Assembly: GCF_050320075.1 (NCBI RefSeq)
Contig: NZ_CP190018.1
Direction: 5' to 3' (one strand)
DNA from: Escherichia coli
GTDB taxonomy: Bacteria; Pseudomonadota; Gammaproteobacteria; Enterobacterales; Enterobacteriaceae
DNA: 64,000 nt
Shown here in pieces: positions 60,061 through 64,000 of the stretch. The position numbers and the translations under genes were made by a program. Below the pieces are notes generated by a model. The model ran no database searches. It was not told the DNA's origin and saw only the letters and a list, made by a program, of their open reading frames with translations. Numbering within the stretch: position 1 is the stretch's first letter; every line of letters begins with the position of its first letter.

Positions 60061-62211
60061 TTAACGCCGCCGACGGCGTGGGGATTTCGTTTTTTCTTTC
60101 TTTTTAACTATACCTTCAGGGACTTCCGGTTGCTCTATCGGAAATACCGGTAATGCATCCAGTAGCCGCTTGCCGTAGTTTTTGGTGAGCAAGCGTTTAT
60201 CGTAAATCACCACTTCGCCCCAGCAACCGTGGCTTCGAATCAGTCGCCCAACCTGCTGAATCAGGTTAAACGAGGCGCTCGGCAGGCTTTGCACCTCAAA
60301 CGGATAGCGGTTGAGGCTTTTCAGCCATTCCCCTTCGGTGATCACCACGGGGCTGTCGATGGGCGGAAAAGCGATTTTGTGGATATGCACCTGGCTGAGC
60401 AGATCGCCTTTCAGATCAAGCCCTTCGGCAAATGACTGTAAGCCCACCAGCACGCTGCGCTCACCGTTGCCGACGCGTTTGCGGTGCAGTTCAACTAAAC
60501 GGTAACGCGGCTGATCGCCCTGCACCAGCAACATCAGGCGTAAATCCGTCACATAGTCGAGAAACCGCTGCATCGCCCGTCCGCTGGCAAACAGTACCAA
60601 CATACCGAGATGTTTTTTGCTCTCCACCTGCTCACGGAAAAAGGCTGCCATTTCAGCAATGTGCTGCTCTTCGTTGTCGATGGAAGGCTCAAAGCGCATC
60701 CGGGGAATAACAATTTTGCCCTGTTCGCAGTGGTTAAAGGGCGAATCCAGCGCCACAAAGCGGTCGCCCGCTTTCTCTTTCAGACCACTCATCTCCTGCA
60801 AACGCGAAAAACTGTTCAGCGAACGTAAGGTCGCGGAATTGACAATAATGTGCGGAATACTGCGCCACAGCAGCCTTTCCAGCTGATCGCTGACACGAAT
60901 ACCCACACAGTGAAACCAGAGATGCAGCTGCCCTTCGCGCTCTTCCCGCGTCGCCCATTTGGTCACCGGCGCACCGGAAGATTGCGCCAGAGACGCCAGC
61001 CGCCAGAGTTTGCTTTGCGCCTCGAACATCCCCAGCGCGCGATTCATCTGCAAAATCAACCGATGCAGACGTACAATGTCATGGCTGCCGGTTTTCTCAC
61101 TTAAATCGTTAAGAAATAACTCCGCCAGGCCACGCAGCATCTCGGTGAGTTTTGCCAGCCGCTGGCAGATCTCCAGCACTTCATCTGGCAGTTCGCCCAT
61201 CGCAAAACGGTGCTCTGCCTCCTGCCCGGCAGGCATGTAGAGATTGAGAATGTTGTTTAACGAGGCGATAAGCTCATACAACTCTTCACAATGCGCATTC
61301 AAACGTTCAGGGATCGCCAGCGGCGGGATGGTCTTCGGGCGAAACTGCTCCATGCAGGTAGCGACCAGTTTCGTGAACAAGTCCAACTGTAGTCGATACC
61401 ACGGCGCGGTGATTTCGGCACTCATCTCCAGCGCATCCCGCGCCACATCTGGCAGGTGATGACCTTCGTCCAGCACCAGCAGCAAATTTTTCGGGTCAGG
61501 CAATACGGCTTCGCTTTCCATCGCCGCCATCACCAGCGCATGGTTTGCCACCACCACTTCCGCTTCCTGAATCTCCCGACGAGCGACAAAAAACGGGCAT
61601 TCGCGATAGTAATAACAGTTGCGGTTGAGGCAGCTGGCTTTGTCGGTACTTAAACGACGCCAGAGATCGTCATCTATAGCGATATCAGTATGATCGCGCA
61701 GACCATCCCATTTATAAGTGTCGAGATCGCCCTTCAGCTTCGCACAACGTTTTTGCTCTTCCTGATTATTTGGCGTCAGTTCGTCGTCAAGAAACGCCAG
61801 CAGATCCTGTTGCGTGGGTTCAGTGCTGGCGAGCGCCGTCAGATTACGCGGGCAAACGTAGCGCCCACGCCCAAAAGCGGCAGTGAATTTAAGATCGGGA
61901 ATGATCTTTTTCAGCAGCGGTAAATCTTTGCTGTAGATCTGATCCTGCAATGCCACGTTGGCGGTACTCACCACCAGCGTTTTTTGCTCTTCGCGGGCAA
62001 TGGCGATGCCGGGAATCAAATAAGAGAGCGTTTTCCCAACGCCGGTGGGGGCTTCAATCGCCAGATGCCGCCCTTCTTCTCCGGCCAGCGTTTTGGCGAC
62101 GTCCGCAATCATCTGCCGCTGCGGCGCACGGGGAATAAAGTCGGGGATCTGTTCCTGAAGCGCCTTATACCAGGCGGCAATTTGCGCTTTAAGCGCGGCG
62201 GTTAATGCCAT
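60061..62211 (-). CDS. dinG: ATP-dependent DNA helicase DinG (SOS-inducible, Fe-S)
   Basis: 716-aa ORF; Walker A (APTGVGKTLSYL), DEGHH box and four-Cys Fe-S cluster region. Confidence 0.9.
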   Translation of the reverse strand: MALTAALKAQIAAWYKALQEQIPDFIPRAPQRQMIADVAKTLAGEEGRHLAIEAPTGVGKTLSYLIPGIAIAREEQKTLVVSTANVALQDQIYSKDLPLLKKIIPDLKFTAAFGRGRYVCPRNLTALASTEPTQQDLLAFLDDELTPNNQEEQKRCAKLKGDLDTYKWDGLRDHTDIAIDDDLWRRLSTDKASCLNRNCYYYRECPFFVARREIQEAEVVVANHALVMAAMESEAVLPDPKNLLLVLDEGHHLPDVARDALEMSAEITAPWYRLQLDLFTKLVATCMEQFRPKTIPPLAIPERLNAHCEELYELIASLNNILNLYMPAGQEAEHRFAMGELPDEVLEICQRLAKLTEMLRGLAELFLNDLSEKTGSHDIVRLHRLILQMNRALGMFEAQSKLWRLASLAQSSGAPVTKWATREEREGQLHLWFHCVGIRVSDQLERLLWRSIPHIIVNSATLRSLNSFSRLQEMSGLKEKAGDRFVALDSPFNHCEQGKIVIPRMRFEPSIDNEEQHIAEMAAFFREQVESKKHLGMLVLFASGRAMQRFLDYVTDLRLMLLVQGDQPRYRLVELHRKRVGNGERSVLVGLQSFAEGLDLKGDLLSQVHIHKIAFPPIDSPVVITEGEWLKSLNRYPFEVQSLPSASFNLIQQVGRLIRSHGCWGEVVIYDKRLLTKNYGKRLLDALPVFPIEQPEVPEGIVKKKEKTKSPRRRRR

Positions 62212-62225
62212 GAGAAAACCTGAAA

Positions 62226-62245
62226 TACTGTATAAACAGCCAATA
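62226..62245 (-). promoter_or_regulatory. LexA (SOS) box of dinG
   Basis: Minus-strand TATTGGCTGTTTATACAGTA matches my recollection of the non-canonical dinG SOS box (TTG-N10-CAG); 15 bp upstream of the dinG ATG. Confidence 0.7.
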
Positions 62246-62381
62246 TTGTGGCATTTTTCGGTTTTCAGGGGTAATGGTTTTTCTGTTTCTGGAAAGCGGC
62301 TCGCAATAACGTTTTCCGGATGTGAAGTTTTCTCGCGGCAGAAGAAACATCATTGTGCAGCAAAAGACATTGTACATCAGC

Positions 62382-62663
62382 TTATTCCGCTGGCGGCCAT
62401 TGCAGAGCGGTATGTAAAACACGCAGTACCGAGAGCGTATCGCCCTCCACTTGATAGACAAGCACATAATGCGGCCTGACAACGGCTTCATGTGTACCAG
62501 CGACTCGTCCGGCCCGGTACATCTCCGGGCGTTCACAGGCCTGTTCCGCAATGGCTTCAAATTGATTATCAAGGGCTATTGCCGCTAGCGGATTATCTTT
62601 ACTGATGTATTCCATGATTTGCTCCCTGTCAGACAGGGACATTGGCTTCCATTCCAGACGCAT
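62382..62663 (-). CDS. ParE/RelE-superfamily toxin-like protein (accessory; occupies the K-12 ybiA position)
   Basis: 93-aa ORF; ParE-like features (N-terminal LSDREQIMEYI, central GR, C-terminal VLVYQVEGDTLSVLRVLH); start overlaps the upstream gene stop (TAATG). Confidence 0.7.
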   Translation of the reverse strand: MRLEWKPMSLSDREQIMEYISKDNPLAAIALDNQFEAIAEQACERPEMYRAGRVAGTHEAVVRPHYVLVYQVEGDTLSVLRVLHTALQWPPAE

Positions 62664-63103
62664 TAATCCCCCTTCAGCAAGGCTTTTTTACGGGCAGCAA
62701 ATAGACTTTTGGCCTCTTCATGAGAGAGTGCCGGGCGTGGATCGTCAATGGCGGCCTGCACCTGCTCTCGAAACCAGGCATCATACGCGGCAGCTTCATG
62801 AGCTCGTTTTAATGCCTCAGCCCTGTCTGGTCGGGTCGTTTTCTTCTGACCGTCCGGGTCGTAATTAGAGGCGTCGACTTCAAACCGGGCAATACCAACA
62901 TCTTTCAGGTAGTTGACAACCGTTTCCAGCCGTTTGAACAGGCGGATTTGCCGACTGCGTTGTGCTGCAAGAGGCCGTTCAGTGTGGCCGTATTTCACGG
63001 TCAACGACCAGCCTCCCTGGGTGCCAATAACGTGTGCTGCATCCACTACGCCAGATTCAACCAGTTTATGTAAGGTTGAGTGATCGATCGTTTCTGGTGC
63101 CAT
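62663..63103 (-). CDS. Hypothetical 146-aa protein, presumed cognate partner (antitoxin or regulator) of the ParE-like toxin
   Basis: ORF translationally coupled to the toxin gene; charged helical C-terminal region (RPDRAEALKRAHEAAAYDAWFREQVQAAIDDP...); N-terminal ~90 aa unassigned; much longer than typical ParD/Phd antitoxins. Confidence 0.6.
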   Translation of the reverse strand: MAPETIDHSTLHKLVESGVVDAAHVIGTQGGWSLTVKYGHTERPLAAQRSRQIRLFKRLETVVNYLKDVGIARFEVDASNYDPDGQKKTTRPDRAEALKRAHEAAAYDAWFREQVQAAIDDPRPALSHEEAKSLFAARKKALLKGD

Positions 63104-63130
63104 AATGCGCTAACCTCTTTGTATACAGCA

Positions 63131-63208
63131 TGCAATTTATAATTAAAGATAGAGCAATTAATAATAAATTGCAGCACCTTGATCGTAAATTGCCCAGGAT
63201 AAAATTGC
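63131..63208 (-). promoter_or_regulatory. Putative promoter/operator of the ParE-like module: dyad plus direct heptamer repeats
   Basis: TGCAATTTAT (63131-63140) and ATAAATTGCA (63164-63173) form a perfect 10-bp inverted repeat 23 bp apart; further AAATTGC copies at ~63188-63194 and ~63202-63208; AT-rich. Confidence 0.4.
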
Positions 63209-63232
63209 GGTAGAAAGAGACTTGTTGCGAAG

Positions 63233-63253
63233 ATGCCGGGCATCGCCCGGCAT
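63233..63253. other. Hairpin immediately 3' of rhlE
   Basis: ATGCCGGGC-ATC-GCCCGGCAT perfect 9-bp stem; no U-tract. Confidence 0.4.
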
Positions 63254-63259
63254 AAAAGA

Positions 63260-64000
63260 TTACTGCGCAGCGGCAGGTTTACGCGGACGGCGGCGACGTT
63301 GTTGTTCGCCTGCCGGTTTGGCATCGCCGAGACGACGAGACGGTTTTTCTGCGGGCTTCGCGTTACCAGACTTCGCACCACTTTCCGCACGGCGTGGTTG
63401 CTGTTGACCGCGACCACCACCTTGCCCACGACCGCCGCCGCCACGTTGCTGGCGACCGTTCTGGATCGGTTCGGCTTTGATTGACGGGTCCGGCTCATAA
63501 CCCGGAATCGCAATGCGCGGGATCTCTTTTTTCAGCAGTTTTTCGATATCACGCAGCAGTTTGTGTTCATCAACACACACCAGCGACAACGCTTCACCGG
63601 TAGCAGCCGCACGACCGGTACGCCCGATACGGTGGACATAATCTTCCGGTACGTTTGGCAGTTCATAGTTGACCACGTGCGGCAGCTCTTCAATATCCAG
63701 GCCGCGCGCAGCGATGTCAGTTGCCACCAGTACACGAATATCGCCCGATTTAAAATCAGCCAGCGCACGGGTACGCGCACCTTGCGATTTATTGCCGTGG
63801 ATCGCCGCACTACGGATGCCATCTTTATTGAGCTGTTCAGCCAGATGGTTAGCGCCATGTTTGGTACGGGTAAACACCAGCACCTGCTGCCAGTTCCCTT
63901 TCCCAATCATGTGCGACAACAATTCGCGTTTGCGTTTCTTATCAACAAAGTGAACATGCTGGGTCACCTGATCAGACGCGGTATTGCGGCGTGCCACTTC
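63260..64000 (-). CDS. rhlE: ATP-dependent RNA helicase RhlE, C-terminal part (gene starts beyond window end)
   Basis: ORF 63260..63997 open to window edge; DEAD-box helicase C-terminal domain (HRIGRTGRA) and Arg/Gly-rich basic tail. Confidence 0.85.

Follow-up and report, generated by a model that had tools for sequence, protein, structure and literature searches.

What stands between dinG and rhlE in this Escherichia coli chromosome, where K-12 carries ybiA, and how would its expression be controlled? In the window, by which we mean the whole 64-kb stretch of DNA that was analysed, this interval holds two minus-strand open reading frames (ORFs), and a first-pass annotation made from the sequence had described them as a ParE-like toxin with an atypical partner of 146 amino acids (aa) that together replace ybiA. 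Our analysis indicates that the cassette is probably an intact, autoregulated type II toxin-antitoxin (TA) module of the ParE2/PaaA2 lineage, chromosomally fixed in place of ybiA. It does not represent a new type of system, its domains being already in Pfam and some of its copies already named by RefSeq, and its interest lies mainly in a possible new fold for DNA binding by antitoxins, which is open to direct test. The parts of the module are:

62311-63231, no strand assigned: the whole cassette, differing from the K-12 ybiA allele (blastn comparisons with K-12 and a delta-ybiA strain)
62382-62663, minus strand: ParE-clade toxin gene, 93 aa (Pfam, NCBIfam, solved-structure and Foldseek matches)
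62663-63103, minus strand: antitoxin gene, 146 aa, with a ParC-like domain and a PaaA2-type tail (ORF and profile matches)
62666-62794, minus strand: PaaA2-type, putatively ParE-neutralising region of the antitoxin, codons 104-146, two helices (Pfam and PDB matches, predicted local distance difference test [pLDDT] scores)
62849-63103, minus strand: ParC-like domain (PF28031) of the antitoxin, codons 1-85, proposed operator-binding module (alpha-beta-beta-beta-alpha-beta fold)

Homology to K-12, as traced by blastn, stops at 62310, which is 99 bp ahead of the start of dinG, and restarts at 63232, where the rhlE terminator hairpin lies, so that the 921 bp of the cassette stand for 706 bp of K-12 made up of ybiA and repetitive extragenic palindromic (REP) sequence, which bears out the replacement first proposed. 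The cassette contains no regulator gene besides the two minus-strand ORFs. The coupling of the two genes was likewise confirmed, as the antitoxin stop and the toxin ATG share a single base (TAATG on the minus strand), seen on the plus strand as cattaatcc at 62659-62667. We fetched 80 related loci and recovered the antitoxin ORF in 79; a ParE-like ORF lies directly downstream in 75 of these, and among 64 intact pairs the overlap between the two is 4 bp long in 33 and a single base pair in 19. At least 900 homologues carry the same two domains, almost all of them 145-150 aa long, in alpha-, beta- and gammaproteobacteria (Salmonella, Xenorhabdus, Photorhabdus, Serratia, Pseudomonas, Burkholderia, many betaproteobacteria and Rhizobium), and RefSeq names some of the E. 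coli copies "antitoxin PaaA2 family protein" and others "hypothetical protein", so the partner is not the atypical protein it had been taken for. The pair is found on plasmids too, in one case beside repA (Achromobacter).

Departures from the intact pair were also seen. Five loci (L026, L028, L031, L033 and L056, four of them from Pseudomonas) have an intact antitoxin with a split or truncated toxin ORF, and look like orphan antitoxins left after toxin decay. In the representative library, the 171-aa protein P0132 joins a ParC-like N-terminal domain directly to a ParE-like C-terminal half (...GRAGRVKSTRELV...LLHGSQQWP); an in-frame deletion has probably made one gene here out of antitoxin and toxin.

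The ParE-like character given to the 93-aa protein at first reading is upheld by Pfam, by solved relatives and by structure. It matches Pfam ParE_toxin (PF05016) over residues 3-86 with an E value of 1.3e-13, and among proteins of solved structure only ParE2 of E. coli O157 (5CW7/5CZF) and a Mesorhizobium ParE resemble it in sequence at E below 0.1, ParE2 chain 5cw7_B coming first (E 1.7e-6). The AlphaFold2 (AF2) model of the toxin superposes best on ParE2, with a template modelling (TM) score of 0.86-0.92 and a root mean square deviation of 1.3 A, and the top Foldseek ranks are taken by ParE2 and the ParE proteins of P. aeruginosa, Mesorhizobium and M. tuberculosis. The modelled fold is of the ParE type, an N-terminal alpha-hairpin followed by a beta-sheet, and is nearer to ParE than to RelE; in a model linking antitoxin and toxin, the toxin part comprises helices at 183-197 and 201-220 and three strands, with pLDDT of 92-97. 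All family-invariant residues are kept (W5, D12, A27, A28, E59 and H84). Because both sequence and structure matches are led by ParE2, we place the toxin in the ParE clade with ParE2 as its nearest relative. ParE2 co-localises with the nucleoid and induces the SOS response, its exact target not being known (PMC8630535), and by analogy the 93-aa toxin probably poisons a topoisomerase or another DNA transaction.

The antitoxin falls into two parts, of which the C-terminal one matches Pfam PaaA2 (PF21217) over residues 104-130 (E 4.2e-10) and the PaaA2 chains of PDB entries 3zbe and 5cw7 over residues 83-139 (E 2e-4). The first-pass annotation recognised nothing in the N-terminal ~90 residues, and this did not hold, as Pfam PF28031 ("ParC-like") and, more weakly, NCBIfam NF041544 cover about 85 residues there. 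PF28031 hits the 99%-identical protein P0001 and nearly all of the 120 homologues listed, and the N-terminal 80 residues of the antitoxin align end to end with the 80-residue NF041544 model of ParC family partition-associated proteins (E 3.5e-8), at 33 bits against a curated equivalog cut-off of 95, which is not reached. In the AF2 model a compact domain of alpha-beta-beta-beta-alpha-beta order (residues 8-77) is joined through a poorly ordered linker to two long helices, which span 94-120 and 128-145. This N-terminal domain of about 85 residues is confidently folded in the model, so the protein is not a pure PaaA2, which has no folded domain; nor does it carry the ribbon-helix-helix N-terminal domain of ParD-type antitoxins. 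The extra folded domain accounts for the size of the protein, about twice that of a usual antitoxin, as had been remarked at first reading. When antitoxin and toxin were linked and modelled as a single AF2 chain, using an alignment of the pairs from 31 loci, pLDDT across antitoxin residues 110-140 rose from 83/75/80 for the antitoxin alone to 95/95/93, which in the model fits folding of the tail on the toxin. A search of AFDB50 returned only uncharacterised relatives, and our literature searches found neither a description of the ParC-like plus PaaA2 architecture nor a described function for the PF28031/NF041544-family ParC domain.

Upstream of the pair, the following elements were located:

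63114-63119, minus strand: Shine-Dalgarno-like AAGAGG, 10 nt before the ATG (sequence reading)
63132-63137, no strand assigned: extra GCAATT half-site between the predicted -10 and the Shine-Dalgarno sequence, left arm of the inverted repeat reported in the first-pass annotation
63146-63174, minus strand: predicted promoter, -35 CTGCAA at 63174-63169, 17-nt spacer, -10 TATCTT at 63151-63146
63154-63172, no strand assigned: 19-bp palindrome GCAATT-N7-AATTGC (GCAA-N11-TTGC), proposed primary operator, GCAATTAATAATAAATTGC (comparative conservation)
63188-63208, no strand assigned: two AATTGC half-sites, at 63188-63193 and 63203-63208, upstream of the promoter

The perfect 10-bp inverted repeat reported earlier is real and is part of a longer one, with arms of 16 nt (63131-63146 and 63158-63173) that are 94% complementary. 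The further AAATTGC copies were also confirmed, at 63166, 63187 and 63202, with a reversed copy at 63132: of the 19 copies in the window on both strands, four fall within 77 bp upstream of the pair, where a Poisson estimate for such a stretch expects about 0.02 occurrences. We infer the promoter position from alignment with Pseudomonas loci that read TTGCAA-N16/17-TAGCAT. It lies under the threshold of a consensus scan, which proposes instead TTTACG-17-TATTAT at 63189-63161; this alternative promoter also overlaps the palindrome, which fills the spacer of the aligned one and overlaps its -35.

The palindrome, which is tighter than the inverted repeat and was not mentioned in the first-pass annotation, is conserved in other genera well beyond chance, in keeping with the operator-like character first suspected of the upstream repeats. 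The exact GCAA-N11-TTGC motif occurs in 37 of 78 loci, nearly always 58-79 bp before the start codon, where by chance shuffled sequence gives 0.9 loci and random windows give 3.1; allowing one mismatch, it occurs in 50 of 78 loci as opposed to 11 by chance. It is preceded by T/C-T, which makes the left arm a -35-like TTGCAA, and is directly followed by a -10-like TAnnAT hexamer; the palindrome therefore fills the promoter spacer in these loci. Burkholderia and Nitrosomonadales-type loci share this geometry with arms CCAA/CCGT...TTGG/ACGG, and other Enterobacterales loci have a TTGCA site at the place of the 63132-63137 half-site. The loci without GCAA were too heterogeneous for a simple scan of half-site types against antitoxin residues, and these variants are described qualitatively only. 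Taken from sequence comparison, the conservation points to the 19-bp palindrome as the operator.

Which part of the antitoxin would read this site? The exact motif is found upstream of a full-length Rhizobium copy and also before ParC-like genes that have neither a PaaA2 tail nor a ParE partner, on the Aeromonas plasmid pMC64B and in the metagenomic locus L087, where it lies 46 bp upstream of the gene; the site is therefore tied to the N-terminal domain and not to the tail or the toxin. Tentatively, we propose that the ParC-like domain (PF28031) is an unrecognised sequence-specific DNA-binding fold for GCAA-N11-TTGC, portable among small operons that include ParE/PaaA2, Gp49 (HigB-like)/HTH_37 and partners on Xanthomonas and Aeromonas plasmids, with ParC-like-PaaA2/ParE as the complete form and PaaA2 of O157 as a truncated derivative.

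It is unlikely, in our estimate, that the cassette is a TA pair whose ParC-like domain does not bind DNA and instead serves oligomerisation, stability or the recruitment of partners such as partition proteins, the palindrome then being bound by the linker helix (RPDRAEALKRAH), by the whole TA complex or by a host factor. The ParC-like fold is not a recognised DNA-binding fold, its family is named after partition-associated proteins, and the RPD-x3-(L/M)(K/R)xxH helix is kept even in short-tailed members and could be the functional element, all of which speak for such a role. Yet the palindrome stands upstream of the 83-aa stand-alone ParC-like gene of L087 (P0176), which is essentially tail-less, a host factor common to Rhizobium, Pseudomonas, Aeromonas and E. 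coli is improbable, and neither parA nor parB was found near any inspected TA-type locus, the neighbours in the window being rhlE and dinG.

Beyond the TA pairs, a profile of the N-terminal domain matched 808 representative clusters, and among the best 150 of these, 69 end in a PaaA2 tail, 26 are tail-less and 55 carry tails of other kinds; stand-alone relatives of 80-120 aa occur. At L087 (332-1317), the P0176 gene overlaps one for a Gp49 (HigB-like) toxin, after which comes an HTH_37 gene, and the arrangement may represent a three-gene module using the same regulator domain. On plasmid plB of Xanthomonas citri (L085 3004-4196), a 152-aa ParC-like protein has a basic tail that is not of the PaaA2 type, and its gene shares 4 bp with that of a 245-aa protein, with hits in 106 Xanthomonas plasmid records; the 245-aa protein, which matched nothing in Pfam, NCBIfam or PADLOC, could be a new toxin partner. 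On pMC64B of Aeromonas media (L084 2998-4179), the 89-aa stand-alone ParC-like gene with the motif upstream lies 226 bp before a gene for an NYN-domain (PIN-like nuclease) protein, with hits in 53 Aeromonas plasmid records. The "ParC" of NAH7 (L089 2016-2468, IncP-9; PMC12421886) was considered as a member of the same family and rejected, having no NCBIfam hit and an hhalign probability of 0.2%; it is thus unrelated to NF041544 and the Pfam ParC-like family, and the results of PMC12421886 do not apply here. The founder ParC was sought on pCAR1, where no par gene occurs within the first 9 kb of the record.

Many TA modules act against phage, and domains added to antitoxins at times serve as sensors. 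On this ground the module could act mainly in abortive infection, with the N-terminal domain sensing a phage cue and releasing the toxin, a role that we regard as improbable. Neither protein matched a PADLOC model, the cassette sits between housekeeping genes and outside any defence island, and the tight link between domain and promoter palindrome better suits a regulator, although missing evidence of defence is not counter-evidence and autoregulation is compatible with defence. The first-pass annotation had offered an unusual TA variant with an added regulatory or sensor domain, of which the TA module stands and a regulatory domain is the probable reading, while nothing was found in support of a sensor, or else a different two-component system built on a ParE fold, for which nothing was found either.

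That the toxin is a RelE-like, ribosome-dependent mRNA endonuclease and not a ParE-like poison of DNA or topoisomerase would agree with its match to the NCBIfam RelE_StbE model TIGR02385 (38.5 bits, above the 27.9 cut-off), with the span of PF05016 over both RelE and ParE and with conserved E59, R58 and H84 residues that could form an RNase site, but is improbable given that the close solved relatives are all ParE proteins, that structure ranks ParE2 and other ParE proteins (TM 0.75-0.92) over RelE, YoeB and YafQ (0.6-0.7), and that its antitoxin is of the PaaA2 type, for which pairing with ParE2 is known.

We thus return to an autoregulated TA module of the ParE2/PaaA2 lineage, for which we propose the following mechanism. 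The ParC-like domain, probably as a dimer, would occupy the palindrome at 63154-63172 together with the half-sites at 63132-63137, 63188-63193 and 63203-63208, and as these sites overlap the promoter of the operon itself, their occupancy would repress its transcription. The C-terminal PaaA2-type helices (residues ~94-145) would wrap and neutralise the ParE-clade toxin, and loss or degradation of the antitoxin would set the toxin free. In this way the ParC-like domain would do in cis what a separate PaaR2 does in paaR2-paaA2-parE2.

How did such a module come to stand in for ybiA? A comparison of the interval across complete E. coli genomes, which had been suggested as a check, found the full cassette in 324 of 5,426 genomes and ybiA in 3,432, leaving about 1,670 with neither. 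One genome of this last group was inspected, strain ST865, which is arranged as in K-12 except that 440 bp inside ybiA are cleanly deleted. The dinG-rhlE interval is therefore at least tri-allelic in E. coli, with ybiA, a deleted ybiA and the TA cassette; the alleles were located at 62212-63259 of the window, at 2876-3268 of L083 and at 3238-4070 of L002.

Escherichia whittamii carries the cassette at the same chromosomal site (L003 3105-8438), with its two genes 95-96% identical to those of the window and dinG and rhlE about 93% identical. We considered recent horizontal acquisition and rejected it, as the same-site copy differs by 4-5% in the cassette genes and by about 7% in the flanks; with a divergence near that of its flanks, the TA allele is old and not a recent insertion. 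Synonymous to nonsynonymous codon differences from E. whittamii are 15:2 in the antitoxin and 11:2 in the toxin, and both genes are therefore under purifying selection. The cassette marks a long-standing three-way polymorphism at dinG-rhlE in E. coli. The K-12 segment that it replaces contains REP-type repeats downstream of ybiA (L002 3266-3468), and the 706-bp K-12 query had a median of 40 matches in each genome; such repeats may be recombination substrates at this site.

The cassette and dinG run in the same direction (window 62212-62381), and neither an intrinsic terminator nor an unusually stable structure was seen between the toxin stop and the dinG start, so TA transcripts might read into dinG. 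The conserved flank on this side includes tattggctgtttatacagta (reverse complement at 62224-62243), which we take to be the dinG SOS box. An Rfam scan of 62000-63500 gave no match. The flank on the other side holds one further feature:

63233-63253, minus strand: rhlE terminator hairpin (ATGCCGGGC/GCCCGGCAT), conserved flank directly upstream of the cassette and outside the module

Among known systems, the module resembles ParD-ParE (RK2, Caulobacter, Vibrio cholerae ParDE2 and M. tuberculosis ParDE1/2) in having two overlapping genes, a ParE-fold toxin and an antitoxin with an N-terminal structured domain and a C-terminal region that wraps the toxin, with promoter-overlapping autoregulation to be expected. 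From the NF041544 ParC family it differs in its score far under the cut-off, in the lack of a parA or parB neighbour and in the fusion of its ParC-like domain to a toxin-binding tail. Its closest counterpart is paaR2-paaA2-parE2 of the E. coli O157:H7 prophage CP-933P (5CW7, 3ZBE), with which it shares a toxin 27-29% identical to ParE2 and of the same fold, an antitoxin C terminus that matches the ParE-binding helices of PaaA2, and the antitoxin-then-toxin gene order. The PaaA2 of O157 has 63 aa, is disordered and has no DNA-binding domain, its transcription being under the third gene paaR2, which is embedded in the prophage immunity region (PMC8630535). In contrast, the module described here has two genes and no PaaR2-like gene, a fused and folded ParC-like domain of about 85 aa, a proposed palindromic operator of its own and a place in the chromosome outside a prophage, and no separate upstream PaaR regulator of the helix-turn-helix type was found between rhlE and dinG or in the inspected plasmid loci. 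An established family of exactly this architecture would have spoken against the unusual variant first proposed, and none is at hand, because characterised PaaA2 lacks the ParC-like domain and depends on paaR2 (PMC8630535). The authors of that study asked whether an ancestral DNA-binding domain of PaaA2 had decayed, and the ParC-like-PaaA2 family is a good candidate for the undecayed form; if PaaA2 of O157 is indeed a truncated derivative, their evolutionary question would be answered. PaaA2-ParE2 has been the textbook exception of an antitoxin without a DNA-binding domain that needs a prophage repressor, and the cassette and its relatives, as the self-contained two-gene version, suggest what the ancestor of PaaA2 was probably like.
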